Made by a program: the position numbers and the translations under genes. Positions 13,495 to 51,350 of a DNA stretch of 64,000 nt are shown here, piece after piece (position 1 is the stretch's first letter; every line of letters begins with the position of its first letter). The stretch lies in the IMG/VR virus record IMGVR_UViG_3300021387_000529, positions 218,811 through 282,810 of that record. One strand, 5' to 3'. Below the pieces are notes generated by a model. That model was not told the DNA's origin and ran no database searches. It saw nothing but the letters and a program-made list of their open reading frames with translations. This stretch comes from a virus. Taxonomy: Duplodnaviria; Heunggongvirae; Uroviricota; Caudoviricetes.

Positions 13495-16400
13495 ATGACT
13501 GACAATAAAGATCCTTACATTTATAATGTTGATAAAAACTCAGATTTTGAACAATTCGCATGGGCTCTTGAAAATTTTGATGTAAAAGCAGCATTCAAAG
13601 ATTTTCTAAATATTGAAAATAACATACAAAAAAGTGATAAAGAAAATAACACAAAAATTTATGATAGTCTCTATAAACAGTTTCTTGATACAAAGTCTTC
13701 AGATCATCTTTCACAATTACAGCTTGATGTTTTAAATTATATTCTTAAATATGAGAACGGAACATATAAAGTTAATGATAAAATCGTAGACATCGAAACT
13801 AACAAGGGTGAAAAGACTTTTACGCTCTATGAGCCAGGATTTTATAAGGTTGAGATTAAAGGACCATCAGGACTTCAATTAAAAAACTCAACAAATCAAT
13901 TTTTATCATCTGGAAAAAATTATGTAGTTTATGAGTCTAAAGATAAAACAACATTTTTTATCATCAATACTAAGTTTGAATACATTTTCCAATATGCTGT
14001 ATCTTCAAATATAAATATTTCATGTGGTGTAGCTGAAGTAAATGACACAAATGTTTTTCTTTTTGAGCAATTTCATGATTATGATCGACCGGTACATAAT
14101 TTTCAGCAATTAATTGAGGTTGATAATTATTTTAATAAATGTGACGTTTATAATGTTAATAAGTCTACTGTATTTGAGTATTTTTCTTTCATAGATGATG
14201 CGTTTGATAAAAACTTTTATTGTCTTAAGACTAATATTGTTTCACAAAGTACAATTTTATCACATGCAGATATAACATACAATCCAACCACATATGTATG
14301 TGGTTTACCAGAAAATGAACGAAGTGAATATCTATCTGGAATTCAAAACGGTTATTATTCTAAAAAAATTTCTGAAAATATGAATATTAACTCTTTGAAA
14401 GAGCTTACTTTCTCTTCATTTTTGAAGTCTGGTGCTGTTTACAATTATAATTATTTGCATGGTGGTGATGGTGGCTCGGTTGTCGCAATTATTAAGCTCG
14501 ATAAAGAAACAACTTTCCAATACAATATTGGAAAGTCTGATGAAGGAAGTTCTACATTTTTAAAGTCATCTAATTATAGTTTCTATGCAGAATGTGGTCT
14601 TAATGCGAATGAAAAAAGTTTTTTAAAGACATCTGACCATATATCAAATGATAGCCTATGCAATTTAAGACTCATCACAGACCATAATTTTAGAGATGAC
14701 GCATCAAAATCTACAACAGACAAAGTAAACTTCCATATTGGAGAAAACTTAGACTATAGCACATATGAAGCCGGTTGCGGAAGAGGCTTTGTTATTATAA
14801 ACAATAATTGTGTTTTTGAGTCTTATGGCGCAGGAGAATATGGCTCAGGCTATAGACTGAATGAATTTAAAAATGCAGTTTATCAACCTCCAAAAAATGG
14901 TTCTATTAAAATAGAATTTCTTGGCTCAAGATATGTTCTTCATAAAAAAGTAAATTTTAGCTCAGACAACAATATTAGAAATAATTTGTATATATGTGAT
15001 GAAGGTCTTCCAATTGGCTGTAAATTTAATTTCCAATCAATGATTACGAATTCTATGTATGGTTGTTTCAAAAATACATATAGCTTCTTGTCTGAAAATG
15101 GAAGACATTTTAACTACATTGGAATTTCTGTTGATACAAAGGAAATTGAAGATAATGTTGTATTAAACTTTGATAACAACTTGAAATATATAAATATCGA
15201 TAAAGAAAATAAAACAATTTTTACACTTCAAAATGACAAAAATCTTTTTGGAACCCTTACTGGATCTGATGGTGAAAGTCTTATGTTAGACACTATTATG
15301 AATGGGTCTTTCAGTTTTTATAATGACCTTTTGTATAATTATAATAAATTTTGTTCAAATGGTCTTTCAGTAAGTATTTCATCATTCTCATCAGAAAGCT
15401 TTGACCTAAAAACATTATTTAAAAACTTTAATAATTTAAATATATTTAATAATGTTGAGTCAATTACACAAGTTGAGTTTTCTTTTGAAAACTCTTTATC
15501 ATTTTCAAAATACACTGACATCTATGGACAAGTCGTATTGCCAGACGTTGATGAGGCTAAGATAGTAAAACTTGAGTACTCTCTTTATAATCATGAAAGT
15601 CCTGTTCCATATGAAAAAGGCCAAAAAATAATTATTCCTTCAAATACTAAAATGTTTTTGAAATTTACATTTAACACTTCAAGGGTAAGACTTGATGAAA
15701 ATCTTACATCATTTCAAGGCTATAAATATTTTTATAGAAAAAATGTAGATTTTGATAATAACTACATAAAAGATGAATATTTTAAAACTAATGGAATAAA
15801 CTTTCAATGTGTTGAATTTATTCCTCAAACATCACAATATTGCAGCGTTTTTATTCAAAAAAATACATATAATTTCTCAATTAGTCCAGACCTTTTTAAT
15901 GAGCTCGACTTAAAAAATTTCTATAATAGAAGTGAGTTTGAAGTTGGAGAAGCTGTTCTTTTACAATTGAACATTAAAAACTATGTTAGAGTTTCAAATT
16001 TAAAAAATTATTATTATAAACAACAGTCAAAAACGATACTTGGTACGCCATTCCCAGCCCCAGATAAAACTTGCCCTTGCTATACATATTTTGATACAAA
16101 TAATATTTTTGAGTCTTTTATTAGATTTGGAAACCTTGAAGACGATAAAAATTTTTGTGACTCTTCAGTTGTAGACCTTTTATCAAGAAAAGGTTTCAAC
16201 AATGTGGCGATTGAAAGCGGCAAAGAAAAAAATTATAATGGCATTGATGTTCTATGCTCAAGAGAAGTTGAAGAAAAAGACTATGAAGGTGATATTACAA
16301 ATAACCCAACTTTAAAAATCACATGTACTGCGTCTGCTTCAAAAGATGAATCTGTCTTTATCTATATCTACATGAAAGAATGCGATATTAAATTAAGACT

Positions 16401-18018
16401 TTCAGCAAATTATAATCCAGGACAAACTATTGCTTGTGTTGAGAACTTGAACTCTGCTTATGTAAGTATATTCAAGAATTACTGCTTTACTATCTTCGGA
16501 GTTGGTGGACCAACTGGAAATGGTGAAAATGGTGGTTTCGGCGAAATGGACGGAACAACTGAGAGTATGCCTGGGTCATTTGGTGGAGATGGCTATAATA
16601 GTGGAAGTGGTGGATGTGGTGGTTCTACTAAAAACATACGGCCTTGGACACATTATTGGGGTGGTTTCGTTCCTACGAATGTCGACCTCCAAGTAGCTGC
16701 TGCAGGTTTTGGAGGATTTCCTGGAAGAGCATTTTTCTCACCTGGGTCTAAAGGTTCTGATGGCCGTTGTTTACTTGGAAATAAGTATCAGTATATCTTT
16801 AAACTTAGAGCGAAAACTTCAGAAAGAGGTGGTCAAAAATTTATAGAAATTTGGAACCCTGGAGAGAAAAAAGTTCCATATTATACAGGAATTCCAATTG
16901 TTGTTTTTACAGAAATTATCAAACATAAAGAAAACTTTATAAAGCCAGTAATTTATATTAAATCTGGAATAAAAGGACTAAGTCATCTAACAGCTGAATA
17001 CCAATTAGATGGCTTAGGTGGTGGTCCTGGACTTCCATCATTTTTAAAAATTATTCATAATAATGATGTTCCTTATGGTAGTAATAACACAGAATTAAAA
17101 TTAATTTCTAAAAAGACAGCTTATGGTGAAATATATTCATATTTTTATGATAATGGTAATTTGTCTATTAGTAATGAAGATGAAAATACTGCTGGAATGT
17201 CTTCTGGAAAGTTAGACTATAAAGATAAAGTTAATGTAGACTCAATGATTTTTGAAGGTGGAATTGCTGGTCAGTGTCACACTAGACAACCAAAAAGAAT
17301 TTCTACTTACCTCACAGTTTGGGGTTGGCCTTCTAATAATAGTAGCGATGATGAAGACAGATTTTCTGACTATTCTCCATTTACATATAATTATTTATCA
17401 GGATATACTGCTTCATATGCTCAAGGAAACAGTCAATTTACTCAAGACTGCAAAGCTAGCCTAAAATTCACATCGTCTGGTTCAGATGATATTAAAGGAT
17501 TTTATACAATAAGTCAAAATTTTACAAGAAATAAACTTACAGATTACCGTCTAAAAGAACTTTTAGGAATTTGCGTTAATGGTAACGATAATGGCACTAG
17601 AACTCGTGGTTCGCTCGTTAAATTTGGATTTAAAGGTTTTGACTCAGAATATTATAGCCTTTTTTGTGATAGTGATACAGGACGTAACTTTGATAATACA
17701 TTTGTATTCACAAATTGTTCGGCTGCATATGGGCTATCTAAAGAGTCAGAAGACGGAGAACAAACAATTGCAGAAAATCTTATGAAATCATTCAACTTTG
17801 TAGGTGAGTCAAATGTTTCAACAGACTCTGGAATCGTAAAAATACAAACATTCAATGATATTAGTGTTGATAAAAACAAAAGTGAAAAAATAAGCTTAGA
17901 GTCATTCTATAAAGGAGAACCAGACAACCATAATAGCCTAATAGATGCTGAAACAAATCCGACATCATTGATCAGTATTAGTACGTCAACCTTTATTCCT
18001 GAACAGCCTTTGGAGTAA
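13495..18018 (+). CDS. large tail protein (fibre or baseplate-associated, putative; 1507 aa)
   Basis: Asn-rich giant ORF with a Gly-rich segment (GGPTGNGENGGFGEMDG...GGDGYNSGSGGCGG). It is divergent from the tape-measure gene and preceded by an AACTAAAT box 7 nt before the ATG, with no Shine-Dalgarno site. Confidence 0.55.
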   Translation: MTDNKDPYIYNVDKNSDFEQFAWALENFDVKAAFKDFLNIENNIQKSDKENNTKIYDSLYKQFLDTKSSDHLSQLQLDVLNYILKYENGTYKVNDKIVDIETNKGEKTFTLYEPGFYKVEIKGPSGLQLKNSTNQFLSSGKNYVVYESKDKTTFFIINTKFEYIFQYAVSSNINISCGVAEVNDTNVFLFEQFHDYDRPVHNFQQLIEVDNYFNKCDVYNVNKSTVFEYFSFIDDAFDKNFYCLKTNIVSQSTILSHADITYNPTTYVCGLPENERSEYLSGIQNGYYSKKISENMNINSLKELTFSSFLKSGAVYNYNYLHGGDGGSVVAIIKLDKETTFQYNIGKSDEGSSTFLKSSNYSFYAECGLNANEKSFLKTSDHISNDSLCNLRLITDHNFRDDASKSTTDKVNFHIGENLDYSTYEAGCGRGFVIINNNCVFESYGAGEYGSGYRLNEFKNAVYQPPKNGSIKIEFLGSRYVLHKKVNFSSDNNIRNNLYICDEGLPIGCKFNFQSMITNSMYGCFKNTYSFLSENGRHFNYIGISVDTKEIEDNVVLNFDNNLKYINIDKENKTIFTLQNDKNLFGTLTGSDGESLMLDTIMNGSFSFYNDLLYNYNKFCSNGLSVSISSFSSESFDLKTLFKNFNNLNIFNNVESITQVEFSFENSLSFSKYTDIYGQVVLPDVDEAKIVKLEYSLYNHESPVPYEKGQKIIIPSNTKMFLKFTFNTSRVRLDENLTSFQGYKYFYRKNVDFDNNYIKDEYFKTNGINFQCVEFIPQTSQYCSVFIQKNTYNFSISPDLFNELDLKNFYNRSEFEVGEAVLLQLNIKNYVRVSNLKNYYYKQQSKTILGTPFPAPDKTCPCYTYFDTNNIFESFIRFGNLEDDKNFCDSSVVDLLSRKGFNNVAIESGKEKNYNGIDVLCSREVEEKDYEGDITNNPTLKITCTASASKDESVFIYIYMKECDIKLRLSANYNPGQTIACVENLNSAYVSIFKNYCFTIFGVGGPTGNGENGGFGEMDGTTESMPGSFGGDGYNSGSGGCGGSTKNIRPWTHYWGGFVPTNVDLQVAAAGFGGFPGRAFFSPGSKGSDGRCLLGNKYQYIFKLRAKTSERGGQKFIEIWNPGEKKVPYYTGIPIVVFTEIIKHKENFIKPVIYIKSGIKGLSHLTAEYQLDGLGGGPGLPSFLKIIHNNDVPYGSNNTELKLISKKTAYGEIYSYFYDNGNLSISNEDENTAGMSSGKLDYKDKVNVDSMIFEGGIAGQCHTRQPKRISTYLTVWGWPSNNSSDDEDRFSDYSPFTYNYLSGYTASYAQGNSQFTQDCKASLKFTSSGSDDIKGFYTISQNFTRNKLTDYRLKELLGICVNGNDNGTRTRGSLVKFGFKGFDSEYYSLFCDSDTGRNFDNTFVFTNCSAAYGLSKESEDGEQTIAENLMKSFNFVGESNVSTDSGIVKIQTFNDISVDKNKSEKISLESFYKGEPDNHNSLIDAETNPTSLISISTSTFIPEQPLE

Positions 18019-31141: not shown

Positions 31142-31181
31142 TATATAAAATAATAATAATAATTTTTAAGGAGGTTGACAA

Positions 31182-32825
31182 GTGTTAATTTTGTCAGCAA
31201 TTATTGGTGGAGGAATTCTCGCAATCCTCATTCTTATCATGTTTTTTGTTGGATATTTCAAAGCTCCAACAAATAAATGTTTTGTTATTTCGGGTTTGCG
31301 CAAGAATGCACGAAAAGTTATTGGAAAGTCTGGCTTCAGGATTCCGTTCCTCGAGCGTAAGGATGAGCTTACTCTTGAGTTGATTTCAGTTGATGTAAAG
31401 ACACAGGAAGCTGTTCCAACTGCAGAATGTATCAATATCTCAGTTGATGCTGTAGCGAACATCAAGATTGGTACTTCTGATGAAATGTTGCAGAAAGCAT
31501 CACAGAACTTCTTAAACCAGGATGTACGATATATCAACAGCGTTGCTCGCGAAGTTCTTGAAGGTAACTTGCGTGAAATTGTTGGTACCATGACTTTGAA
31601 AGCCATGATGAATGACCGCAAAACTTTTGCTGAGAAGGTTCAGGAAAATGCAGTTCCAGACCTTAACAAAATGGGTCTTGAGATTGTATCATTCAATGTA
31701 CAGAACTTCAGCGATGAGCAGGGTGTAATCAACAACCTTGGTATCGATAACATCGCAACTATTCAGAAGAACGCATCAATTGCAAAAGCAAATGCTAACA
31801 AAGAAGTTGCTGTTGCAGAAGCAAAAGCTCGTGAAGAGTCAAATGACGCAAAGGTTGCTGCTGATACTGCAATTGCTGAAAAGAACAATGCTCTTGAAGT
31901 TCGTAAAGCCGAACTTGAAGCTGAACGTTTGAAGCAGATTGCAAAAGCTGAAGCTGCAGGTGCAATTGAGAAAGAAACACAGCGTAAGACTGTTGAGGTT
32001 ACAAAACAGGAAGCTGAGATTGCCCGCTTGCAGAAAGAGAATGACTTGAAAGAGCAGGAAATCTCAATCAAGGAAAAAGCACTTGATGCTGAAATCAAGA
32101 AACAGGCCGATGCTGAAAAGTATGCTGCTCAGACTCGTGCTGATGCTGAACTTTATGAACGTACAAAAGCCGCTGAAGCTGAAAAGATTGAGAAAGAGCG
32201 CAATGCTGAAGCAAACCTCATTGCTCTCCAGAAGAAAGCTGAAGCTGATAAATACGAGCAGGAAAAAGCCGCTGAAGCTTTGGTTGCAAGGTCTGAAGCT
32301 GAAAAACAGCAGAAGTTGAATGAAGCTGAAGGTCAGAAAGCTCTTGCTGAAGCTATCCAGGCCAAGGGTGAAGCTGAAGCTGCTGCTGTAAAAGCTAAAC
32401 TCGAAGCTGAAGCTGAAGGTCTTCGTAAGAAAGCACTTGCTGAAGCTGAAGGTTTGAAACAGAAAGGTTTGGCTGAGGCTGAAGCAATCAACAAGAAAGC
32501 TGAAGCTCTCGCAAAGATGAATGAAACTGGTAAAATGGACATGCAGTTGGAAGCACTGAAAGCGCTCTTCAGCCAGTTGCCAGCAATGTATGAAGCAGCT
32601 GCCAAACCTTGGGAGAAAGTTGGAAACATCACAATGTACAGTGGTGGAAAAGATGGTGGTGACAACCTTCTTACAGGCAACATCACTAAGACAATCACTC
32701 AGGTTGGTGCAGGTCTTAAAGACTCGCTTGGTATCGACCTTGGAGACGTTGTTAAGGGCCTTGTTGGTGGAAAGCTTGTTGGTTCAGAAGTTGCGAAAGC
32801 ACTTTCAACAAAAGACAAAGCATAA
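31182..32825 (+). CDS. flotillin-like SPFH/band-7 membrane scaffold protein (FloT/YuaG-type)
   Basis: GTG start after the Shine-Dalgarno site AAGGAGG. The protein has an N-terminal transmembrane helix, an SPFH domain (FVISGLRKNARKVIGKSGF...LEIVSFNVQNF), a ~250-aa Ala/Glu/Lys-rich coiled coil (EA repeats), and a Gly-rich C-terminus. Its architecture and 547-aa length match bacterial flotillin. Confidence 0.8.
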   Translation: MLILSAIIGGGILAILILIMFFVGYFKAPTNKCFVISGLRKNARKVIGKSGFRIPFLERKDELTLELISVDVKTQEAVPTAECINISVDAVANIKIGTSDEMLQKASQNFLNQDVRYINSVAREVLEGNLREIVGTMTLKAMMNDRKTFAEKVQENAVPDLNKMGLEIVSFNVQNFSDEQGVINNLGIDNIATIQKNASIAKANANKEVAVAEAKAREESNDAKVAADTAIAEKNNALEVRKAELEAERLKQIAKAEAAGAIEKETQRKTVEVTKQEAEIARLQKENDLKEQEISIKEKALDAEIKKQADAEKYAAQTRADAELYERTKAAEAEKIEKERNAEANLIALQKKAEADKYEQEKAAEALVARSEAEKQQKLNEAEGQKALAEAIQAKGEAEAAAVKAKLEAEAEGLRKKALAEAEGLKQKGLAEAEAINKKAEALAKMNETGKMDMQLEALKALFSQLPAMYEAAAKPWEKVGNITMYSGGKDGGDNLLTGNITKTITQVGAGLKDSLGIDLGDVVKGLVGGKLVGSEVAKALSTKDKA

Positions 32826-32841: not shown

Positions 32842-32870
32842 AAGGGACCACGAAAGTGGTCCTTTTTTCA
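32842..32870 (+). terminator. rho-independent terminator
   Basis: gggaccac-gaaa-gtggtcc followed by tttttt. Confidence 0.7.
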
Positions 32871-32901: not shown

Positions 32902-33192
32902 ATGAGTGATGCTTTTGATTGTACAAAAGAAGAACATATTTTCAGAAAGAAGCCTGTAACTGTTGCAGCGATTGGTTGGAATGGTAAAAACTTTGATGCA
33001 GTGAAAAAATTTGCAGGCGATAATGTTCATCTTGAAAATGGCGAGTTGGTTATCAGAACTTTGGAAGATGGCGTTGATGGAAAAGCAAAGCATGTAGCGA
33101 CAATTGGAGATTTTGTCATTCGCGGCGTTAAAGGTGAATTCTATTTTTGTAAGCCAGACATCTTTGAGCAAACATATGAGGTAGTTGAGTGA
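32902..33192 (+). CDS. hypothetical protein (96 aa)
   Basis: ORF with Shine-Dalgarno site aaaggagaaacaaaaaATG. Confidence 0.5.
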   Translation: MSDAFDCTKEEHIFRKKPVTVAAIGWNGKNFDAVKKFAGDNVHLENGELVIRTLEDGVDGKAKHVATIGDFVIRGVKGEFYFCKPDIFEQTYEVVE

Positions 33193-33902
33193 TAACTATA
33201 AAAGAATACACGACGAAAGTTCCTCTCCAAATGATTGGAGAGTTTTCCGGTATTTGTTGGGGAGCAAACATTGAAGACAGACAGAAAAACATAAAACGTG
33301 CCTGGGACTGTATCGAAAGTGGGCATGGTAGAACTGAAGAATTTCCAGATGTCTATGTTGTCATAGATGGATATTCAGCAAAATGCCTTCGTGAGTTGTA
33401 CACACATATTGGTGGAAGCCCAACAAGATTGCAAGCTTCAACTCGCTATATTGACTATGAAAAGAAAGGCGTTGATGTTGTAATACCATCTTCAATTGAA
33501 AAAAATCAAGATGCTTTGGCTGTATGGAATTCAACTATTGAAACAGTCAGAAGTGCGATGAGAATACTGAAAGACTATGGTATTCCAAATGAAGACTTGA
33601 CGAATTTATTGCCTCTTGCGTATCGAAGTAAAATGGTTTGGAAAGTCAATCTTCGTACTTTAGTAAACTTCTTCGGAATGCGTTTGTGTAATCGTGCATA
33701 TTGGGAAATTAGAGCACTTGCTAAAGAATTGAAAGATGCTTTGAGTGAATATTCGCCAGAATGGAAAGAAATTGCTGATGCTCTATTTGTTCCAAAATGT
33801 GTTCATGTTGGTTTCTGCACAGAAGCAAAAAGCTGCCATTATAGACCGCCAAAAAATGAAATAAAAATTGTTTGGGAAGGAGGAAATTATGACCCTCAAT
33901 AA
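33189..33902 (+). CDS. thyX: flavin-dependent thymidylate synthase ThyX-like
   Basis: SGHGRTEEF...ELYTHIGGSPTRLQASTRY approximates the ThyX RHR...S...S.RY motif. NLRTLVNFFGMRLCNRAYWEIRALAKEL matches the conserved ThyX (N)ARELxHFxxLRxxxxAQWEIR block. Confidence 0.65.
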   Translation: MITIKEYTTKVPLQMIGEFSGICWGANIEDRQKNIKRAWDCIESGHGRTEEFPDVYVVIDGYSAKCLRELYTHIGGSPTRLQASTRYIDYEKKGVDVVIPSSIEKNQDALAVWNSTIETVRSAMRILKDYGIPNEDLTNLLPLAYRSKMVWKVNLRTLVNFFGMRLCNRAYWEIRALAKELKDALSEYSPEWKEIADALFVPKCVHVGFCTEAKSCHYRPPKNEIKIVWEGGNYDPQ

Positions 33903-34344
33903 AATAAAAGGTGATATTTTCAGCCAGATTGGATATTCAATTGCTTTTGCAGTTGATGCAACTTACAGATGTGATGTCGGTATCTGTAAGCAACTCGATG
34001 ATAAGTTTCGTGTTGAAGCTCTTTTGAAGTCATTGCCTGAAGAGGCAACAAAATGGAAAGGAAAAGGTTACTGTATTGCATTTACTTCAGGAACTCAAGA
34101 CTTATATGCTCTTGTCGTTAAGTCACTTCCACAGAAATATCCAGACTATTCAAACATCAAAGAAGCTCTTATGAGTTTGGCAGCAGATGTTGCACGAAAA
34201 AGCAGCATTCTTACGCCTAAAATTGCTATGCCTAAGATTTGCTGCGGAATTTATGACAGACGAGATTGGGATAAAATTGAAAGTCTTATCATTGATGTTT
34301 TCAAAGGCATTGATTGTGAAATTTTAATTGTTGAAAAAGACTAA
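33889..34344 (+). CDS. hypothetical protein (151 aa); weak macro-domain-like N-terminus, not confirmed
   Basis: ATG at 33889 with Shine-Dalgarno site GGAAGGAGG (the track uses TTG 33868). Confidence 0.5.
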   Translation: MTLNKIKGDIFSQIGYSIAFAVDATYRCDVGICKQLDDKFRVEALLKSLPEEATKWKGKGYCIAFTSGTQDLYALVVKSLPQKYPDYSNIKEALMSLAADVARKSSILTPKIAMPKICCGIYDRRDWDKIESLIIDVFKGIDCEILIVEKD

Positions 34345-38549: not shown

Positions 38550-39230
38550 ATGATTGCAGAAAGAGAATGGCTTAAAAAATATATTGGTTATGACACAAAT
38601 ATAACGCATCCTGTGACAATTTTGCATATGTATGATATGTGCAATTTACAATGCTCATGCTGTTATGTTAAACAAGGATGCTATATGGCAATTCCAAGTG
38701 GCACATTTTTGAGTGATGATGCATTACGAAATGTTGTAAAAGAGTCTGCTGAAAGAAATCAATGCATTTTTACAGGAATTGGTGAGCCATTTCTTTTTTG
38801 GGATAAATACACTAAACCAAAATTATTGCCATTATTAAAAGAATATGGCGCAAAATGTGTAATTTCAACAAATGGGCTTTGGGGAAATAATGATGATGTC
38901 ATTAACGACATTATTTCACTTGAGCCAGAATGCATAAACTTTTCTATAGACTATTATCATAAAGTACCTATTGAGAGTCTCAATCATGCTATAAAAATTT
39001 TATCGTCAGACTCTGTGAAAACTAGAATTTTTATGTCACAAATAACAGACAAAGAACACCCAATTGGGCATATCAAACCGATAAATTATGATAAACTTGT
39101 GAAAGTTGAATTTCCAATGAATAGAAACTCTAATTCAAATCAAGGACTTTCTTTTCATGATGCAGATGGACATATAATTTTTACATCAAAACCAACCACA
39201 AAAGAAAGCTCTCTCAATGTATTCGTTTAG
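38550..39230 (+). CDS. radical SAM protein (QueE/NrdG-like)
   Basis: MYDMCNLQCSCCY contains a CxxxCxxC cluster, and FTGIGEPFLF matches the GGEP-like SAM-binding motif. The protein is 226 aa. Confidence 0.55.
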   Translation: MIAEREWLKKYIGYDTNITHPVTILHMYDMCNLQCSCCYVKQGCYMAIPSGTFLSDDALRNVVKESAERNQCIFTGIGEPFLFWDKYTKPKLLPLLKEYGAKCVISTNGLWGNNDDVINDIISLEPECINFSIDYYHKVPIESLNHAIKILSSDSVKTRIFMSQITDKEHPIGHIKPINYDKLVKVEFPMNRNSNSNQGLSFHDADGHIIFTSKPTTKESSLNVFV

Positions 39231-41918: not shown

Positions 41919-42245
41919 TTAAATAAACTTATCTAATATTACAAAGTCTTTTTTCTCAAAAAAATTTTTAAGAGGAACAAACTTTTTAATTTTAGATTTT
42001 TGAAATACCATAAAAATTGCAATCAGCTTTTGTTGTGTATTTATAGATAAATTTTTTAATAAAGTATAGTTATAAAATTTATTTTTTTCTAAAACACTAC
42101 ACAAGTATAAGAAAACTTTCTCTAATAGCTCATCATAATACCCATGAAAAGCATTACATTTAATGATATTTTGCAGAGCTAAATTTATATAATTTAACTC
42201 TGCATTGTCAGACTCTAACTCAAAATTAGTTTCCAGTTCCGTCAT
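41919..42245 (-). CDS. doubtful ORF in a very AT-rich gap (108 aa from the ATG at 42245)
   Basis: Open frame overlapping the giant gene stop by 20 nt with no Shine-Dalgarno site. The region has roughly 20% G+C and may be non-coding or regulatory. Confidence 0.25.
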   Translation of the reverse strand: MTELETNFELESDNAELNYINLALQNIIKCNAFHGYYDELLEKVFLYLCSVLEKNKFYNYTLLKNLSINTQQKLIAIFMVFQKSKIKKFVPLKNFFEKKDFVILDKFI

Positions 42246-45200
42246 CTGGTGGTGCGGCTTCTTCTGAGCGTTCTCCAATTGTGGCATCAATCTCTCCTTT
42301 TCTATATGCTTCTCCTAAAGAAGCAAGGCTAGTTTTAATTATTGGTTCAGCTAAACCTACTTCTGGGACCCAGTTACCATTAGGCAGATTTGCATATAAC
42401 GTTTCATCAATAAAATATTGAAGACTCATATTTTCAAGTAAGAATTCTTTCCATGCTGCAAAGTCTAATACTTTTTCAGTTATTGATGAACTTAGCTCAA
42501 CATTCATGTCTTCTCGTCCTTCTGTAGTAATAGTAAAATAGCCTGGAGCAGCAATTTCTTCACTTAAATACGGTTTAAATATTCTTGGCTTTTCAGGCCA
42601 GACTCTAATATTTGGAATAACAAAATAGTTTCTCTTGTATTCATTCAATTTATATTTGTGCGTTCCATTATCCTCATCAAGAACCATACCATATAATTCA
42701 AGATTATATCTTACTGGGTCATTATTTGTTTTTTCTACATCAACAACAATTACAGTGAAAGATGTTATCTCATATTCTTGTCCTTTAAATTTAAGCTTAA
42801 TCGCTCTTGAAGATGTGTCAACAATATTATAACGTGTAAATGATTTTAGCTCGATATTATTTGGAGACTTTGCAACATCAAGTTTAAGTGCTGATGGAGT
42901 AAGCGTATGCTGTAATTCTATGAGCTGTCTAATATTTTCAGAAGAAATCTCGATTTTTGAGTCAGGAATTGGCAATATCTGACCATTTATATATGAGTTA
43001 TCTCTGAACTTAAACTCATTAACAAATGTCGTTTCTTTGAAAATTTGTGGTCTAACATTTTGTGTATTGAACAAATATTCATTAAATTCAGTTTCAAATC
43101 TATCCGCTGCGCATCTTGTAGACTTTTTCAAAATAGGTGAACGAACAAATGCGTCTTTAACTGAGACCAAATTTCTTCTTAAAGGCTTAATATAATACTC
43201 TTTATAAGTATGGTTAAAATCACCTTCTGAATGAACAACAGACTTTTCTGAAGTAATATTATGGTCATGTGTAAAAGGCGTAAACTCTGCTGTTGCAGTG
43301 TTATCCGCATGTGTTTCTTTCCAATTTTCAAAACCAGAATTACCAATGCTTACAGTATGGTTAAATGTTGTCGGTGTAGTTGTAATATTTGATGTGCCTA
43401 AAAGAACATTTGCTGTTGTAGTTTTAAGCTCAATTTTTTGTTTGCTTAGTGTAACTACTGGTTTTGCAGACTCATTATTAGTTAAAGAAGGAGCAGATTT
43501 TGTGCCTTCAGATACTAAGTCGCTTCCTTTTACAGTTATTTTAACAGTCTTATTATTTGCTGTTGGTGAGAATGTCGCTGATATTGTTGGGGCGCTACCA
43601 GCAAGCTTAGCAGCAGTCCAAAGTTTGTTAATTGCGTCTTGAAGATTATTAAGTGTAATTGTTCCTCCAGAAGATACATCAACAGTTGTTGAATACTCTT
43701 TATCAGAAGTGCTAATTCCTTCAAGGAAATTATTAGAATTAAGTCCTAAACCGCTTTTGATGAATTTCTGTTCGCCAACTGTAATACCTGTAACGTATTC
43801 TGCTTTATCACCTTCCAATTTAACAGTCTTAATTACGTCTTCTTTATTTTGAGTAAATCCATACTGGTTTATTGTATGCGCAGACACATTTACAGTTAAA
43901 GACTTTTTATCATCTTTATTGTTATTATTTTCAGTCTTGTCTTCTATATAATGAACATACTGCTTACTTGATTTATCTTCATTGCAACTATCTACGGTAA
44001 CGTGCAATTGTTCTGTCTCACGAGTAGACATTAAAATAGAGTCTTTACTAATTGACGTTTCAACCTCTTGACTTGTATCTCCACCTTGTGAATTTACATC
44101 TTCTGGAATATTATCAGAAATTAAAACGTCATGTTTATATGAAGCAGCTGTAGAGTCGATGTCTTCTGTTAAGTTGCCATCTGTACCGTCACTAAAGAAT
44201 TCTTTTTCAAAGAAATAACCTTCAGTAAAACCACCTTTAGTTGGGTCTAACCAATCAATATCATTATTAAGATATTGGCTTACATATGAGAACTCATCGC
44301 TGAATTCAAATCCTGAAAGAGGCTTTCCAACGTTTTCTGGTTCAAGAACTTCACCAATCTGTGTCACATCTTTGAGTACAGTAGCTATATCTGCATATTT
44401 ATTAATTCTTTCAAAGAGTGTTTTATCAGGTATATGTGAGTCTCTTATATTTTTACTAAATACATTTTTTTCAATAAATGCTCGAACGTCCAAAGACTCT
44501 ATCTTTGCATCATCACCAAAAATAGACATATCATAGTCTTCATGGTCTGAACAAGAAATTATGTCATAATTCCAGCCTCTTTCGAGTGTATCGTCATCTA
44601 CAATTTCAATATGAGTTGTGTCTGTATCAAGCAAATTATATTTTTCAGATGAACTATAAACTTTTTTATCAATATAATCATTGAAATCACAACTATGTTC
44701 TTTTCCATTTCTGTCTACCCAAACAAGGTCATTATTCGCAATAGGTCTTTGCAAATATGGGAATGCTTGTTCATATTCAGATGAAAGTCCTGTAATTCCA
44801 TTTAAGAAACCAAAGAAAAATTTTCTTTTTTCTAAGTCTTTGCCACATGATGCATTGATCTTATTTAAGAAAAGGTTTACACTTGTATGATAAACTGGTC
44901 TTGCTAAACGATATGACAAACTTGACTCATATACACCATCAGCTTTTGCTTCTACTGTATAATGTTTTTTATCATGATAATCTGACCATGATGGGAAAAA
45001 GTTTTTAATGAATTGCTCATTAATTTTATCAGGATGACCAATAAGCTCAATAATTTTTCTAAATTCACTCGAGACATTTGTTACTTCTTCATATCCTTCA
45101 AAAAGAGAATCTACCCATTCTGCATCAATATCAGCTGAGTCAAAGTCACGCTCACGTGTAAGTTTTATTGAAGGGATTAAGTCTATTGAGTCTTTTTCAG

Positions 45201-48200
45201 GATTTTGTCCTGAAAAATGACAATCAGACGTTTGTCCCTTAGTTGGTAAATCAACTGGATGTTTAAGACTTTCTAAGTAAGTATTTATGTCAACATCCAA
45301 TCCGTCTTTAAACATTGGAACTGCAATGTCTGAATAGTCACCATTTGGTATGTCATAATAGATGTAACCTGTTTTTATTCCTTCAATAAAGTCATTATAC
45401 ACTGCAATTTCTTTTTCATAATCACTTTGTGTATATTTTTCTACTTTTTTCTCACCATTTTCGTAAGTTGTCTTGTCTCCTTGTAGTACATTAGTGTACA
45501 CTCCACCTTCGATGTTACCCAAAATTAAGAAGACATAAAGAGCATAAAATTGGATTGGCTCTGTGAGTTCAACAGAGCAAATTTTTCTTGAATATGCAGA
45601 TTTATTCCATCTTTTATATAATTTTGTTACAGTTTCATCTGACCACTCACCAATAATACTTTGATTTGAGAACTTAAATCCAGGGTCTTTTTGTCCAATT
45701 TTTAGTCCATAACCTGTAACAAATCTATCATTGTCAAATTCGAATGCTGAGTAAACTGAGTCAGTGTTTGAGCTATTTGAAAAAACCTGTATATTATCCA
45801 AACTTTTGAATGTTGGTATATTTCCAAAAGTCATATTTATAAATGACGCGATATGCGTTCTTTTCGGATTAAATGTTCCATCGTATCTAAATTGTGCTTT
45901 CATGAAAGACAATTTTATGATAATGTCATAAATTATTCCTTCAAGAGATTGTGGAGCAAAGGTTGCTTTCTGACCTTCATAAGGTGAGCCATCAGAAAAG
46001 AACTTATCAGGCTCATCAGCCATTACAACATATTTTTCACCATTTCCATTATCTACGACATAGTCGCCTGTTGCGTCACTAACACCAAAAATTGTATTAC
46101 CAAAGAAATTTTCTTCAAGTGTTACTCCAGTTCTTTCTTCCCATTTAGGGTCAATATTTATTGGCCATGAGAAAGGTGTTCCTTTATAAATTTCACCTTC
46201 AAAAGGTAAGTCAGTATTATAACCTTTACAGTTTTTTGAAAAAACAATATTTTTTGCTAAAGTAAAACTATATGAGTCATCAGCTCTTGTATAGTTTACA
46301 GGTCTATCGTAACGTGAGTTCATTGTGATGCGTGAACATGCTTTTATAATCTCTTGACATTTATAGTTTATCCATAATTGAGCAAGATGTGATATTCCAC
46401 CAGACTCTTTTAAAATATCTTTTAATTTTAGATTTCCTTTTGAAAAGTCATCATATGCATCTTCAATTGTTTTAAAATTACGTGTTGAAGAAGAAGCACG
46501 TTTTTTGCCATAGTCACTGTAGTTATCAACTAAAAGATTCAATAATAATGACTTAAAACCATTGTTTTCAGCAACAACGTCAAGGCTATCCAAATAGCTA
46601 TCAGTCTTATAGCTAATAAAGCCATTTTCATTCAAAAATTTCAAAAATCTTGAAATTCCTAAATCATCAACATAGTATGATAATTCTGTTTCGACATTTG
46701 CTTCTTTTGAGAATGCGCCAAAATAGTCATATCCGAATAAAAGTCTTTCAATCTTCAAAAGTCTTTCTTCTGTTTCTGTTGCTGCTCTTGACAAAAGTCC
46801 TAAAAATGACTGATAATCAATTCTTGAACGGAGAGACCAACCATCGTTTATTGCTTGCTTTATATCTGCATCAGACTTATCAACTGAAAGCTTATTTGTA
46901 GACTCATTAATTTTACCATTAAAAGTATCATCAAAAATTTTAAAAGAATATCCATTCTCCAAAAAGTCTGAAAGTCTATCTTTAATAATTGAAATTTTTT
47001 CTTTCCCAGATGTTGACTCATTAAAAATAGATGGATATAATACCTTAAAAATTCTTAATGCGCTCTTATCATATTCAACACCATGCTCATTTGTTGTGTC
47101 TTCTGCTGTGAATGACGCTTGGAATTGTGCATTTAATTTTGCAACTGGAACTTCACCAGACAAGTCATATTCCCATGAGATTTTCTTTTCATTCTCTCCA
47201 TCACCGATAATATAATCTTGTGTGAATATTTCTGTGTCAGAGTCTTTTCCACTTATAAGTCTATAAACTACGCCAGCTTTATTTTCACCATCTGTGTGTT
47301 TGAACTCAATACTACTTGAGAGCTCTCTTGTAAATCCAGATGAAGCATTTCCATCATCTTCATTTATATCAACTTTTCCACCGATATAGATTTTATCGCC
47401 TTGAATTACAAGGTTATTTGCTGAGTCAACCAATGGAGTCCATGGATTGAGTGCAGGATATTGATTCAAATAGATTGAGTTATACTGTGTTGGTCTACGA
47501 CGAACTGTTACATATAGCTGAATAGTTTTTTGAGCTTTAGTTCCTATTGGCCAAGTTACACCAAGACAATCTTCATTATTTACATTTTCAGGCTGAGTAA
47601 TCATATAAAGATATGTATTCTTTGACTCAGCTACAACTTGCCATTCAAATCCAGCAAATTTTCCATTTGGAAGCTGCCAAAAACCTGGTGAAATTATTTG
47701 TCCACTTTCTTTTTCCTGAACAATAATGTCATATGCTTCAATGTTCTGTCCATTATTGTCCATATATGCGCCAAGCTGTACAAGATTTGTAATATTTATT
47801 CTGAGGTCAGATGACTCTACTGTTCCGCCTCTAGTTCCAACTTTTTTGTAAGGAATATCCAATTGATAACACTGTTCTGGCCAAACATATGCTTGAGACT
47901 CAGGTGAGCCTTCTTTTGAATACTTTATTTGAGCAGCACATGTTTTACCGTCATCGATTGTATAATAAAGGTCTCTAAATTTCCAATATGTTGGTTTTGT
48001 TTTTGAAAGAATACCAGTTTCAGTATTCTCACCATAGAGTTCCCAGTTGCCTTCATTTACACGAGTGAATGGACCATTTTTATTTTTAGAGAATACAAAA
48101 ATATCTTTTGCATAACAATATGTAAGAAGTGGCGTCCAATCAATAGACTCACCATAAACAGTATGTACAGACTTATCGATTAAACAATATCCAGCATCTG

Positions 48201-49296
48201 TCAAGTTTTCACCAAAAACAGGCTTGATTGTTCCAATCATTTCTGCAGACGCAATAGACTTTGCATAGCGACAATCAACAAGAAATTTGTTTGTTCCGAA
48301 TCCAACACCTACTTTAAACTCGATTGAGTCAGAAGATTCTTCAAAGTCAATGTCTCCATCTTTAATGCAAGCTGTTTTACCAAATGAGCTTGTGCTAAAT
48401 CCAAAATTTCCGCTTACAATTCCGAGTCTTGTGATTGTGATTGTTTTTCCGAGATAGTCTTCTAATGATAATTTTCCATTTTTTGATGGCGCTACAAAAA
48501 CACCAGCAATGTCATTCTTGTCATTTGCTTTTAAAATTGTGTCATTTAAGACAAGAATACCTTTTCCATTTACAATTTTTACAGGAATAATTTTATCATA
48601 GTCAGATGTATTATCTTCTAATGAGATTTCTTGTGTATCTGTAATATCAACTGAAATTTGTGTTGTGTCTACAACACCGCGTACATCACCTGAGAGCTGA
48701 ATTTCAATTAAAATTTTTTGATATTTTTTTAATACTTCTTTTGATGGAAGTGGAGCATCAGCTATACGTCCAATACAGATGATTGTTCCACCATCATAAG
48801 TGGCCTCTGCGAGGTCTATAGTAAGCTCGCCTTTATTTTTATTTGAAACATAGACTGGCTTACCAATGTCTTCATATGTCCATTTAAAAGCATTTCCATC
48901 ATTTGGAGGAAGATAATAGTCTTCTTTACCATAATTTGCAATATCATACTCAATCTGGCCATGTGATTGAACATGTACTTTTTTGTTATCGCCTGCTATT
49001 CCAGGCTCAAGAAGAATACCAACTGAAAATTGATTTACTGATGGGTCAACAACTACAATTGCGCTATCGCCTTGGCCTGAAGCTTCAACTGCAAGTTGAC
49101 TTTCATATCCAACTGCGACTGGTTGTCCTTTTTTAAGTTTGGTTGAACTACCTACCAAATATGTTGAAAGTGGGTTCAACCAATTAGAAGCTGCATCATT
49201 TTTTGAATTATATCTTAATTGGCCATTTTTTCCATTAATCCAGATGTTACCTTCTTTGTAAAGAAGCTCTTGTGGTAAATCAATATTTGCATTCAT
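42226..49296 (-). CDS. giant virion protein (2356 aa; tail or baseplate-associated, putative)
   Basis: Single 7.07-kb ORF with the box ttcatAACTAATTatttaatt-ATG and no Shine-Dalgarno site. No enzymatic motif was recognised. Confidence 0.7.
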   Translation of the reverse strand: MNANIDLPQELLYKEGNIWINGKNGQLRYNSKNDAASNWLNPLSTYLVGSSTKLKKGQPVAVGYESQLAVEASGQGDSAIVVVDPSVNQFSVGILLEPGIAGDNKKVHVQSHGQIEYDIANYGKEDYYLPPNDGNAFKWTYEDIGKPVYVSNKNKGELTIDLAEATYDGGTIICIGRIADAPLPSKEVLKKYQKILIEIQLSGDVRGVVDTTQISVDITDTQEISLEDNTSDYDKIIPVKIVNGKGILVLNDTILKANDKNDIAGVFVAPSKNGKLSLEDYLGKTITITRLGIVSGNFGFSTSSFGKTACIKDGDIDFEESSDSIEFKVGVGFGTNKFLVDCRYAKSIASAEMIGTIKPVFGENLTDAGYCLIDKSVHTVYGESIDWTPLLTYCYAKDIFVFSKNKNGPFTRVNEGNWELYGENTETGILSKTKPTYWKFRDLYYTIDDGKTCAAQIKYSKEGSPESQAYVWPEQCYQLDIPYKKVGTRGGTVESSDLRINITNLVQLGAYMDNNGQNIEAYDIIVQEKESGQIISPGFWQLPNGKFAGFEWQVVAESKNTYLYMITQPENVNNEDCLGVTWPIGTKAQKTIQLYVTVRRRPTQYNSIYLNQYPALNPWTPLVDSANNLVIQGDKIYIGGKVDINEDDGNASSGFTRELSSSIEFKHTDGENKAGVVYRLISGKDSDTEIFTQDYIIGDGENEKKISWEYDLSGEVPVAKLNAQFQASFTAEDTTNEHGVEYDKSALRIFKVLYPSIFNESTSGKEKISIIKDRLSDFLENGYSFKIFDDTFNGKINESTNKLSVDKSDADIKQAINDGWSLRSRIDYQSFLGLLSRAATETEERLLKIERLLFGYDYFGAFSKEANVETELSYYVDDLGISRFLKFLNENGFISYKTDSYLDSLDVVAENNGFKSLLLNLLVDNYSDYGKKRASSSTRNFKTIEDAYDDFSKGNLKLKDILKESGGISHLAQLWINYKCQEIIKACSRITMNSRYDRPVNYTRADDSYSFTLAKNIVFSKNCKGYNTDLPFEGEIYKGTPFSWPINIDPKWEERTGVTLEENFFGNTIFGVSDATGDYVVDNGNGEKYVVMADEPDKFFSDGSPYEGQKATFAPQSLEGIIYDIIIKLSFMKAQFRYDGTFNPKRTHIASFINMTFGNIPTFKSLDNIQVFSNSSNTDSVYSAFEFDNDRFVTGYGLKIGQKDPGFKFSNQSIIGEWSDETVTKLYKRWNKSAYSRKICSVELTEPIQFYALYVFLILGNIEGGVYTNVLQGDKTTYENGEKKVEKYTQSDYEKEIAVYNDFIEGIKTGYIYYDIPNGDYSDIAVPMFKDGLDVDINTYLESLKHPVDLPTKGQTSDCHFSGQNPEKDSIDLIPSIKLTRERDFDSADIDAEWVDSLFEGYEEVTNVSSEFRKIIELIGHPDKINEQFIKNFFPSWSDYHDKKHYTVEAKADGVYESSLSYRLARPVYHTSVNLFLNKINASCGKDLEKRKFFFGFLNGITGLSSEYEQAFPYLQRPIANNDLVWVDRNGKEHSCDFNDYIDKKVYSSSEKYNLLDTDTTHIEIVDDDTLERGWNYDIISCSDHEDYDMSIFGDDAKIESLDVRAFIEKNVFSKNIRDSHIPDKTLFERINKYADIATVLKDVTQIGEVLEPENVGKPLSGFEFSDEFSYVSQYLNNDIDWLDPTKGGFTEGYFFEKEFFSDGTDGNLTEDIDSTAASYKHDVLISDNIPEDVNSQGGDTSQEVETSISKDSILMSTRETEQLHVTVDSCNEDKSSKQYVHYIEDKTENNNNKDDKKSLTVNVSAHTINQYGFTQNKEDVIKTVKLEGDKAEYVTGITVGEQKFIKSGLGLNSNNFLEGISTSDKEYSTTVDVSSGGTITLNNLQDAINKLWTAAKLAGSAPTISATFSPTANNKTVKITVKGSDLVSEGTKSAPSLTNNESAKPVVTLSKQKIELKTTTANVLLGTSNITTTPTTFNHTVSIGNSGFENWKETHADNTATAEFTPFTHDHNITSEKSVVHSEGDFNHTYKEYYIKPLRRNLVSVKDAFVRSPILKKSTRCAADRFETEFNEYLFNTQNVRPQIFKETTFVNEFKFRDNSYINGQILPIPDSKIEISSENIRQLIELQHTLTPSALKLDVAKSPNNIELKSFTRYNIVDTSSRAIKLKFKGQEYEITSFTVIVVDVEKTNNDPVRYNLELYGMVLDEDNGTHKYKLNEYKRNYFVIPNIRVWPEKPRIFKPYLSEEIAAPGYFTITTEGREDMNVELSSSITEKVLDFAAWKEFLLENMSLQYFIDETLYANLPNGNWVPEVGLAEPIIKTSLASLGEAYRKGEIDATIGERSEEAAPPDDGTGN

Positions 49297-49333: not shown

Positions 49334-49714
49334 TTAGCCTTGTTTTTCTTCAATAACAGAAAATTTTAATGGAACAACTGCAGCTTTGCAAATGTCATCT
49401 TTTAGCATTTTATTGTCATCGATAACATCAGCTGGTATAAGCTTTTTTGCAATCAATTGATTTATAAACTCTGGAAAAAACGCCTGAGCCTGCGCAAATG
49501 TTGGAAAAATCTCATTTGAATAAAATGGAAATACAAACTTCTGATTTTCCAATTCTTCTTTCAATAGTTTTGGTGTCTTTTTATGAGCACGCTCATCATA
49601 ATGCTCAAGCTCATTTGCAATTGGCGTGCCATAAAAAATAGCACACTGAAAAAATCCTTCCTGTTTCGGCATTTTGCTCATAATTCTTTCCTTATTGATA
49701 ATATCACTCGACAT
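49334..49714 (-). CDS. hypothetical protein (126 aa) coupled to the chaperonin gene
   Basis: Overlaps the GroEL-like stop by 11 nt. It has no GroES-like mobile-loop signature. Confidence 0.55.
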   Translation of the reverse strand: MSSDIINKERIMSKMPKQEGFFQCAIFYGTPIANELEHYDERAHKKTPKLLKEELENQKFVFPFYSNEIFPTFAQAQAFFPEFINQLIAKKLIPADVIDDNKMLKDDICKAAVVPLKFSVIEEKQG

Positions 49715-51350
49715 TAAACATTCTTCCTGGGTCTACAATTTCATCAAGTGGCTCAATTGACATATTCTTTACGTCTGAAACAACAATAGTGTCAATCGAC
49801 ATAAATTGCTCAGCAATGTTTGAAGAATATATAATTGAGTTCTTTACAACAGTGTATGGGTCAATAATTCCTTTTTCAAGGATGCGCTCAACAGTTGCTG
49901 TTCGTGCATTGAAACCAACATCAGGGTCGTTCAAAATCTGTGGAACAACTGCTACAATTTCAGAGCCAGTTGACTCAATCAATTTCAAAGCTGGAGCACG
50001 AATTGCAGCCATAAATCTCTCATATGCAGTTTTCTGTGGGATAGTCAAGTCTTTTGTATCTTCTGGAGTTGTGCTATATGAAATACGAAGAAGTGAAGTT
50101 CCAGCACCAATCAAAACACCTTCAGCCAAAGAATTACGAACAGCGTTGATTGCGTCTTCATATCTGTCTTTCTTTTCTGAAAGCTCAACTGATGTTAAAG
50201 CTCCAACATAGATTGTTGCAATACCACCTGTAAGGCGAGCGATACGTTCTTTAATTGCATCAATTTGAAATGGCGACTTACCATGAATACAGTCGCCTTC
50301 TTCAGTCAAGCTCTTCAAAAGCTCAATGTGTTTATCAAATTCTTCTTTATTTGTATTTGGGTCAGTGATGATTGTTTCTTTTGCTGTTACATTGATTGCG
50401 CCGCAAGTTCCACAATCTTTAAAAGAATTGAACTCATCAATTTCTTTATCAATACCAATAATTTTTCCAGATGTGATAACAGCAATATCCTGAATATTTG
50501 CCTGAATAGACTCACGTGAAATACCAGGCGCACGAATAAAAACAACATTCTGTGTTACAAGTTTTTTGATATACATTGCAAGAACATCATCACCATATTC
50601 TGGAGCAACAACAAGAATATTTTTTCCGAGAAGTGGCTGCAAAATAAGTGCCAATTTTTCAGAGTCTTCAACAATATCATTAAACAAAATGACTTTTACA
50701 TCATTCAAAATACACTGGTCATTTGCAGAATTGACACATTTTGATGAAATAAAACCTTTATCAAGTTGAAGTCCCTGTTTGATGTCAAGCACAGTTTTTC
50801 CTGTTCGTGACATAGAGTCTGCCATTGAAACAAGACCACCATCACCAATTGAAGTGAATGCTTCAACAACCATATTAGCGATTTCTTCATCACCATTTGC
50901 AGAAACAAGAGCAATATTTCTCATCATTTCTTCTGAGTCAATTGTTTTTTTGTAAGCTTCAAGTTTTTTAAGAACATCTTCACGAGCTTTTTTGTAAGCT
51001 ACACGAAGGTCATTGATGTCAATTCCCTGCATAAGAAGTGAATTAGCTTTATCACACAATGCAGCTGTCAAAATTGTAGTAGATGTTGAGCCATCACCAG
51101 AATGCATATTTGCGCGGTCAGATGCTTCTTTCAAAAGTTTAAGTCCTGTGTCCATACACTCATCCGAAAATTGAAGAATTTTTAAGACTGAAATACCATC
51201 TTTTGTTGATATTGAGTTTGTTCCTTTTGTATAAGAAACAGTACGTCCTCTTGGTCCAAATGTTGATGCTACTGCTCTAGCAGCAAGTTGAATTCCTATA
51301 TTTATCTGAGCTCTTGCTCTTTGTCCAAATATTATACTTTTACCTGCCAT
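49704..51350 (-). CDS. groEL: GroEL-type (Cpn60) chaperonin
   Basis: GPRGRTVSY...TKDGISV...GDGSTSTT...LVVAPEY...GGIATIYVGALTSVELSEKKDRYEDAINAVRNSLAEGVLIGAGTSLL aligns block by block with GroEL ([66 protein letters not shown]). The protein is 548 aa and lacks the C-terminal GGM repeats. Confidence 0.85.
   Translation of the reverse strand: MAGKSIIFGQRARAQINIGIQLAARAVASTFGPRGRTVSYTKGTNSISTKDGISVLKILQFSDECMDTGLKLLKEASDRANMHSGDGSTSTTILTAALCDKANSLLMQGIDINDLRVAYKKAREDVLKKLEAYKKTIDSEEMMRNIALVSANGDEEIANMVVEAFTSIGDGGLVSMADSMSRTGKTVLDIKQGLQLDKGFISSKCVNSANDQCILNDVKVILFNDIVEDSEKLALILQPLLGKNILVVAPEYGDDVLAMYIKKLVTQNVVFIRAPGISRESIQANIQDIAVITSGKIIGIDKEIDEFNSFKDCGTCGAINVTAKETIITDPNTNKEEFDKHIELLKSLTEEGDCIHGKSPFQIDAIKERIARLTGGIATIYVGALTSVELSEKKDRYEDAINAVRNSLAEGVLIGAGTSLLRISYSTTPEDTKDLTIPQKTAYERFMAAIRAPALKLIESTGSEIVAVVPQILNDPDVGFNARTATVERILEKGIIDPYTVVKNSIIYSSNIAEQFMSIDTIVVSDVKNMSIEPLDEIVDPGRMFNVE

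Follow-up and report, generated by a model that had tools for sequence, protein, structure and literature searches.

Flotillins organise membranes across every domain of life, and their precise role in bacteria is debated. In the yuaF-floT operon of Bacillus subtilis an NfeD partner adjoins floT, and the flotillins of eukaryotes are anchored by a hairpin with acylation. In phages, proteins with an SPFH domain are known from annotation entries, for example those of Xanthomonas phage X1 and phage GIB1, which are listed without a known role, and one paper calls the presence of the gene unexplained (PMC13384950, PMC13239085). In the full-text literature searched, no dedicated study of phage-encoded flotillin or SPFH proteins, or of SPFH proteins in anti-phage defence, was found, only such annotation entries. 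Here, we describe a flotillin-family gene at positions 31182–32825 of a 64,000-nucleotide stretch of viral DNA (IMG/VR record IMGVR_UViG_3300021387_000529, positions 218,811 to 282,810), the whole of which we call the window. Phage-borne SPFH and flotillin annotations already exist, and the window protein adds a new member to the flotillin family; that it truly belongs there we consider close to certain. The gene and the regions of its product are laid out as follows:

31182–32825, + strand: flotillin-family gene, an open reading frame (ORF) of 547 amino acids (aa) with a GTG start and a TAA stop, from the ORF list
31182–31253, + strand: N-terminal transmembrane helix, residues ~1–24, from hydropathy and the AlphaFold2 (AF2) model, which has a helix at residues 2–24 with a predicted local distance difference test score (pLDDT) of ~85
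31254–31742, + strand: SPFH/Band_7 alpha-beta domain, residues ~25–187, from Pfam Band_7, AF2 and Foldseek
31743–32516, + strand: Ala/Glu/Lys-rich helical region, residues ~188–445, from the AF2 helices at residues 188–267 and 276–445
32517–32822, + strand: C-terminal flotillin region and Gly-rich tail, residues ~446–547, from composition, HMMER and Pfam Flot

A first-pass annotation, made from the DNA letters and their ORFs, had described the product as a full-length flotillin homologue in which a transmembrane helix, an SPFH domain, EA-rich helices and a Gly-rich C-terminus follow one another, and our analysis bears this description out. The top-scoring Kyte-Doolittle 19-mer of the protein was located at residues 1–21 (mean 2.8–3.0). 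Pfam Band_7 (PF01145) matched residues 47–206 with 76.1 bits, well above its cut-off of 23.6 (E = 4.5e-21). The helical region, which is ~260 residues long, is composed of 26% Ala, 18% Glu and 15% Lys and contains 44 EA/AE dipeptides, versus 3 in residues 28–187. This region is the counterpart of the coiled-coil wall in flotillin cages, and in a search of PDB sequences it aligned with human flotillin-2 up to residue 315. Glycine accounts for 15% of the last 102 residues (446–547). The Pfam Flot model (PF15975) scored 23.2 bits over residues 408–492, just under its cut-off of 27; a second HMMER domain (27 bits) aligned residues 397–523 to residues 302–417 of flotillin-2, and the clusters P0001–P0020 of the protein's close relatives (the window clade, see below) have precomputed PF15975 matches.

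Comparisons with solved structures led to the same family. The best matches in a phmmer search of PDB sequences were human flotillin-2 and flotillin-1 (9l3g, 9bq2; E 3e-44 to 4e-42, 26–29% identity), with alignments spanning the SPFH domain, the helices and the C-terminus. The next SPFH subfamily in that search was QmcA (7e-7) and no other subfamily matched. The AF2 monomer model, built from a 45-sequence alignment, has an alpha/beta domain at residues 25–177 with a pLDDT of 75–88 and a C-terminus of low confidence. When this model was compared with the PDB using Foldseek, the top four matches were the flotillin cage chains of 9l3g and 9bq2 (E 6e-21 to 1e-18), and HflK/C, stomatin, prohibitin, erlin and QmcA were found at lower ranks (E ~1e-11 to 1e-8). 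In the same comparison, the SPFH domain matched that of mouse stomatin (4fvj) with a root-mean-square deviation of 2.4–2.7 Å and a template-modelling (TM) score of 0.8, and the Band 7 domain of flotillin-2 (1win) with a TM score of 0.74. The objection that the resemblance is limited to a coiled coil fails because the SPFH domain matches both in sequence profile and in predicted fold, and the similarity extends into the C-terminal flotillin region. The flotillin protein itself had no match in PHROGs or PADLOC.

The first-pass annotation had also likened the protein to FloT/YuaG-type flotillins, which was correct with regard to architecture and went too far if read as orthology. The NCBIfam FloT model (NF058507) matched with E = 1.6e-77 and 261.6 bits, and as this is far under the 700-bit equivalog cut-off, the status of a FloT orthologue is unsupported. 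By this criterion, the window protein is a family-level relative of FloT that has the FloT-type domain order.

The gene lies on a divergent replicon of ~301 kb from gut metagenomes. A protein identical to the window flotillin was found on 20 metagenomic contigs. Among them, those of 300,791 bp (ENA ERZ28612940 scaffold_16) and 301,258 bp come from separate assemblies and have the same gene order; the full scaffold is also listed as ERZ12302817 NODE_9. We read the 64 kb window together with ~20 kb of flanking DNA (~84 kb overall), in which coding density is ~93% and most ORFs are without a family match. The functions that were recognised in the window and flanks include replication and recombination (an SbcC-like nuclease subunit, a helicase, a UvsX-like recombinase and an NAD-dependent ligase), nucleotide metabolism (ThyX, a thymidine kinase (Tk), an HD phosphohydrolase and a dCMP deaminase), as well as GroEL, ribosomal protein S21 (rpS21) and a radical-SAM protein. 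Immediately outside the window there are genes for a beta-CASP nuclease, a GGDEF protein, a type-IB (eukaryote-type) topoisomerase and a 5'-3' exonuclease. Phage-only PHROG families of unassigned function are also present (phrog_419, 1810, 21015, 36352 and 1250). In its predicted functions, this gene set resembles those of large virulent (huge) phages.

Across the ~84 kb read of the ~301 kb, we recognised no gene for a capsid, portal or terminase, whether with PHROG, Pfam and tblastn or by comparison with PDB sequences. The searches comprised PHROG at strict and relaxed settings, Pfam on the giant ORFs, PDB sequence searches of three giant ORFs, a tblastn comparison with phages in which six unknown ORFs were concatenated, and a scan of IMG/VR with the phrog_36352 protein, all of which were negative. 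Megablast of 15 kb around the flotillin gene gave no match to deposited phages, and megablast of 24 kb gave none to plasmids. Our assignment of the replicon to a phage, which we hold with high confidence, is based on its gene content, recurrence and size rather than on virion genes, and it falls short of proof because no virion gene was seen in the ~84 kb read.

Flotillins related to the window protein are widespread in large phages. The window clade consists of ~20 protein clusters with 69–99% identity. One of its members, 79% identical to the window protein, is encoded next to a syntenic ThyX block on a contig of 306,108 bp (L007, JAZNWZ010000130.1) that was placed in a metagenome-assembled genome (MAG) of 'Candidatus Fimenecus' (Clostridia). 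This contig seems to represent a huge phage that is sister to that of the window, and not a bacterial chromosome, and its placement in the MAG could be either a binning artefact or a clue to the host. A 51%-identical flotillin was found on a 460 kb contig (L087) that also encodes rpS21, another relative below ~55% identity on contigs of 166–187 kb that are full of small ORFans. A 424 kb contig carries the gene as well. A profile scan of IMG/VR based on an alignment showed that at least 107 viral contigs encode relatives with 42–54% identity; a scan with a single protein query had found nothing. Among the best 80 of these viral contigs, the median length was 134 kb and 50 were 100 kb or longer. 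The viral and bacterial flotillin loci differed sharply in median ORF size and in strand bias.

Species-representative genomes contained at least 574 relatives. The best bacterial relatives were all from gut or rumen Clostridia (Oscillospiraceae, Ruminococcus, Lachnospiraceae and Erysipelotrichales), with 46–51% identity in tblastn and up to 55% in a trimmed alignment. A drop in identity from 70% to 52% was considered as the boundary between phage and bacterial copies and was rejected, as many matches of ~50% are on huge phage contigs.

In a neighbour-joining phylogeny with 100 bootstraps, the window clade was monophyletic (bootstrap 100) and had a long stem, and its deeper placement had a bootstrap below 50. 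Other viral clades were well supported and were apart from one another. The viral flotillins of L096 and L099 were nested in a Lachnospiraceae clade (bootstrap 97–99) and had 84–86% identity to the closest bacterial copy; the large viral clade of L123 grouped with Erysipelotrichales (71), that of L114 with Ruminococcus (71) and that of L098 with a MAG copy (100). Because separate viral clades group with different bacterial lineages, the sequences indicate repeated capture of flotillin from hosts rather than a single ancient event. It had been suggested in the first-pass annotation that a phylogeny with Firmicutes flotillins would point to the host clade, and this was borne out in part: the gene was placed among the flotillins of gut Clostridia, and the host family was not resolved.

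The window clade has been conserved at the protein level. Ratios of nonsynonymous to synonymous substitution rates (dN/dS) were 0.135 between the window gene and that of L007, 0.087 between it and that of the sister contig L088, and 0.073 between L007 and L088, with ~0.08 for the SPFH region and ~0.10 for the helices, all of these values being approximate because dS is saturated (>1). In an alignment of 45 flotillins from phages and bacteria, around 80 positions do not vary. By these measures, the window flotillin is under purifying selection and functionally maintained. The clade also has features of its own. The window protein is 30–40 residues longer than the median relative because of insertions in the helical wall, at residues 344–354 and 420–427, and eight substitutions (P30T, D31N, A33C, I35V, Y83C, V92A, V143M and Q318T) are fixed in the clade where all other relatives show at least 90% conservation. 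Two of these (A33C and Y83C) each introduce a cysteine near the membrane-proximal beginning of the SPFH domain.

The signals around the gene and its downstream neighbours are as follows:

31169–31174, + strand: Shine-Dalgarno site AGGAGG, 7 nt before the GTG start, read from the sequence
32845–32868, + strand: intrinsic terminator, with the hairpin GGACCAC-GAAA-GTGGTCC (32845–32862; 7-bp GC-rich stem, GAAA loop) followed by T6
32902–33902, + strand: 96-aa phage-family ORF (phrog_419/1810), then ThyX, from PHROG and Pfam

The first-pass annotation had credited the gene with a Shine-Dalgarno site and a terminator of its own, and both were confirmed. The terminator hairpin begins 19 nt past the flotillin stop codon and its predicted RNA fold has an energy of -18 kcal/mol (z = -4.1), with 0 of 200 shuffled sequences being as stable; it was not listed by a simple pattern scan. 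Upstream of the gene, 28 sigma-70-like matches were counted versus 17 +/- 4 expected, which is not convincingly above chance. We claim no dedicated promoter for the flotillin, because such matches are near chance level in AT-rich DNA. Instead, we treat the gene as part of a co-directional block at ~28.2–39.2 kb that is ended or attenuated by the gene's own terminator.

The order of flotillin, small ORF and ThyX is kept in the sister phage L007 (306 kb) and also on L087 (460 kb), where it reads ~356-aa ORF, flotillin, small ORF, ThyX. The 354-aa ORF upstream of the window flotillin is not conserved, even in L007. Across all flotillin-carrying lineages, no neighbour gene was common, and because there is no conserved partner gene the genomic context gives no direct pointer to function. 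The statement in the first-pass annotation that the gene has no adjacent NfeD partner was upheld. NfeD (PF01957) had no Pfam match on the genes flanking the window flotillin, nor did it appear in precomputed Pfam lists covering most of the window and ~10 kb on each side, or on the flotillin-flanking genes of six other phage lineages. This absence is not specific to phages, since the nearest bacterial (Clostridia) copies, which sit in ordinary chromosomal contexts, also have no recurrent NfeD beside them.

In other phage lineages, the genes that recur near flotillin encode AAA_33 kinases in tandem, a metallophosphatase, PIN-PhoH, the NAD-salvage proteins NAMPT, NadE and isochorismatase, RNase H, a macro domain and an Amidase_2-SLH endolysin. 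Several large phages that are unrelated to one another (e.g., L116, L154, L160, L161, L146, L150 and L158) have the tandem AAA_33 kinases and the metallophosphatase upstream of flotillin, with the NAD-salvage genes, PIN-PhoH and the Amidase_2-SLH endolysin nearby; in the sister contig L088, isochorismatase and NAD synthase are downstream of flotillin. Because these recurrent neighbours are accessory enzymes, flotillin is considered to travel within the accessory, host-interaction part of these phage genomes. Two genes downstream of the window flotillin there is a 158-aa ORF (33868–34344, + strand) with a match to phrog_335 ('phosphatase') and a weak PADLOC match to the DarG macro domain, and its product may process ADP-ribose.

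Overall, our data document an intact, selected and membrane-anchored flotillin on a phage-like replicon. As to what it does, we tentatively propose as its most likely function, by analogy with cellular flotillins, that it forms a cage of the flotillin type, by which the host membrane would be kept organised and intact while a long infection proceeds. The sigma-W regulon of B. subtilis, which includes floA and floT, is triggered by membrane stresses, phage infection among them (PMC8581546). Under our proposal, an ancestor of the ~301 kb phage lineage would have captured flotillin from a Firmicutes host and the lineage would have retained it, the present host being, probably, a gut Clostridia-type bacterium. 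The protein would be made during infection from the co-directional block of nucleotide metabolism and recombination genes, be inserted into the cytoplasmic membrane by its N-terminal helix, and oligomerise on the cytoplasmic face of that membrane into a cage or microdomain scaffold, as cellular flotillins and SPFH proteins do. The phage would thereby supply for itself a membrane-organising, envelope-stress function that hosts normally induce on phage infection. With host expression taken over, the membrane could in this way stay fluid, energised and intact through the long cycle of a huge phage, until programmed lysis.

Several of our results weigh against this proposal, or against the identifications on which it is built. 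The timing of flotillin production within the infection is taken from gene neighbours alone, and no neighbour is shared by all of the lineages. The structural model is a single monomer of low overall confidence (pLDDT 67, predicted TM score 0.36). The Flot score under its cut-off, the saturation of dS and the lack of a recognised virion gene also count on this side. The last of these, together with the binning of L007 into a Ca. Fimenecus MAG, would fit the alternative that the gene is not a phage gene at all and the contig is a fragment of a bacterial chromosome, a megaplasmid or a chimeric assembly that carries an ordinary cellular flotillin. We consider that very unlikely. Separate assemblies contain this same ~301 kb contig, the 24 kb compared with plasmids gave no match, and the part read is ~93% coding with mostly ORFans, phage-only PHROGs and a T4-like set of replication, recombination and nucleotide genes in addition to rpS21 and GroEL. 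Moreover, its flotillin is only 46–51% identical to cellular copies (tblastn; no more than 55% in the trimmed alignment), has a long branch of its own and has relatives on IMG/VR viral contigs.

If the gene is accepted as that of a phage, other functions can be envisaged for it. Regulation of membrane proteases has been reported for Firmicutes flotillins, and control of lambda CII stability by HflK/C-FtsH is a precedent from phage biology, so that the phage cage might enclose or tune host FtsH or another membrane protease in the manner of HflK/C, thereby protecting phage proteins or altering the turnover of host membrane proteins. HflK/C-FtsH structures (7vhq, 7wi3 and 9cz2) were indeed among the top fold matches, and cages that enclose a partner are a general pattern in solved SPFH structures, including QmcA-YbbJ (8z5g). 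However, the window protein is far closer to flotillins (E 1e-44) than to HflK/C, to which it had no sequence match, neither the window nor the set of recurrent neighbours includes a gene for a protease or an FtsH-like protein, and no lysogeny genes were seen, which makes this function unlikely. We are equally doubtful that the cage serves in counter-defence or membrane repair, stabilising the membrane against permeabilising effectors of abortive infection as one of a group of anti-defence accessory genes. Such a role would agree with the induction of host flotillins by stress upon phage infection, and with the location of flotillin, in other phage lineages, near the NAD-salvage genes NAMPT, NadE and isochorismatase and near a macro domain and phosphoesterases, all of them gene types with links to counter-defence. 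In the window itself, the macro/phosphatase-like ORF two genes downstream and the beta-CASP nuclease with a faint Apyc1 match at the window end would be in keeping with it. Against this, the association is loose and varies by lineage, the flotillin matches no known anti-defence family (PADLOC was negative), and the idea is purely inferential. A membrane altered by the flotillin could also block the entry of DNA from competing phages, or modulate holin rafts and with them the timing of lysis. The protein is membrane-anchored and comes from a non-structural region, and in three viral lineages an Amidase_2-SLH endolysin is encoded 3–5 genes downstream of flotillin. Yet no lysis genes are near flotillin in the window, and flotillin is a conserved host-type scaffold that has been repeatedly captured, unlike the small, lineage-specific proteins known to act in exclusion, and we regard superinfection exclusion or lysis timing as quite improbable roles. 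Similarly improbable, in our estimation, is the broader idea that phage flotillins are a recurrent tool with which large phages take over the membrane, the cage being a phage-directed, organelle-like structure rather than a substitute for a housekeeping function, and that they create phage-specific microdomains or compartments, or a shield against the pore-formers of host abortive infection. A cage that keeps the membrane organised and intact remains the function that we put forward, in the tentative sense given above.

During our reading of the window we noted several other genes. Three giant ORFs stand out. The 1177-aa ORF at 9931–13464 (- strand) has ~15 strongly hydrophobic segments in residues 395–975, as in a giant polytopic membrane protein, and had no Pfam, PHROG or PDB sequence match. 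For those at 13495–18018 (+ strand, 1507 aa) and 42226–49296 (- strand, 2356 aa), no family or solved-structure relative was detected. A full-length GroEL is encoded at 49704–51350 (- strand; phrog_5725, E = 2e-100) and an adjoining 126-aa ORF is a candidate co-chaperonin. The rpS21 gene (PF01165) is located at ~54207–54464 (- strand), and rpS21 is also present on the 460 kb flotillin contig L087. A 463-aa metallo-beta-lactamase/beta-CASP nuclease is encoded from 62895 to beyond 64000 (- strand; L172 10381–11772) and has a faint precomputed match to the anti-Pycsar protein Apyc1. The radical-SAM gene at 38550–39230 (+ strand) encodes 226 aa in some strains and 181 aa without a Pfam match in others (L001 17504–18049 versus L002 17375–18055), a difference that looks like strain-level polymorphism or a frameshift.

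To the existing annotations our analysis adds how broad the pattern is, that large Clostridia phages have captured flotillin repeatedly, and evidence that the gene is under selection. Repeated capture and purifying selection together point to a membrane function that is limiting for infection by large phages. Phage flotillins might serve as a natural gain-of-function system for probing flotillin cages, and they extend the host-derived accessory genes listed for huge phages by a class of membrane scaffolds. In addition, the flotillin gives a Clostridia-level hint as to the host of a ~301 kb gut phage lineage that is otherwise unplaceable.

Among the described systems, FloT (YuaG) of B. subtilis and its Clostridia homologues share their domain order with the window protein and are similar to it in length. 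The window protein differs from FloT in being encoded on a phage-like replicon and in having the helical-wall insertions and the eight clade-fixed substitutions. Its gene is without the NfeD neighbour of the yuaF-floT operon, as are those of its nearest Clostridia relatives. The eukaryotic flotillin-1/flotillin-2 cage (9bq2, 9l3g) is the best solved-structure match in both sequence and fold, but the phage protein is predicted to be anchored by a true N-terminal transmembrane helix instead of an acylated hairpin, and it is presumably a homo-oligomer, since a single flotillin gene is present. HflK/C-FtsH, QmcA-YbbJ, stomatin, prohibitin and erlin have the SPFH fold and helical wall in common with the window protein. 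Their similarity in sequence is much weaker (QmcA 7e-7, the rest undetected), and the window has no gene for an NfeD or protease partner.

A complete flotillin with both Band_7 and Flot (566 aa, annotated as 'flotillin family protein') is encoded by the crAss-like phage csAssE-Sib (OR575929.1). Directly before it, in what would be an NfeD-like position, that phage encodes a 164-aa transmembrane protein with no Pfam NfeD match (L174 3399–5626). The csAssE-Sib flotillin is 28% identical to the window protein, and in the SPFH domain only. The window protein is part of a different clade, that of Clostridia-phage flotillins, and none of the phages csAssE-Sib, X1 and GIB1 is related to the window.

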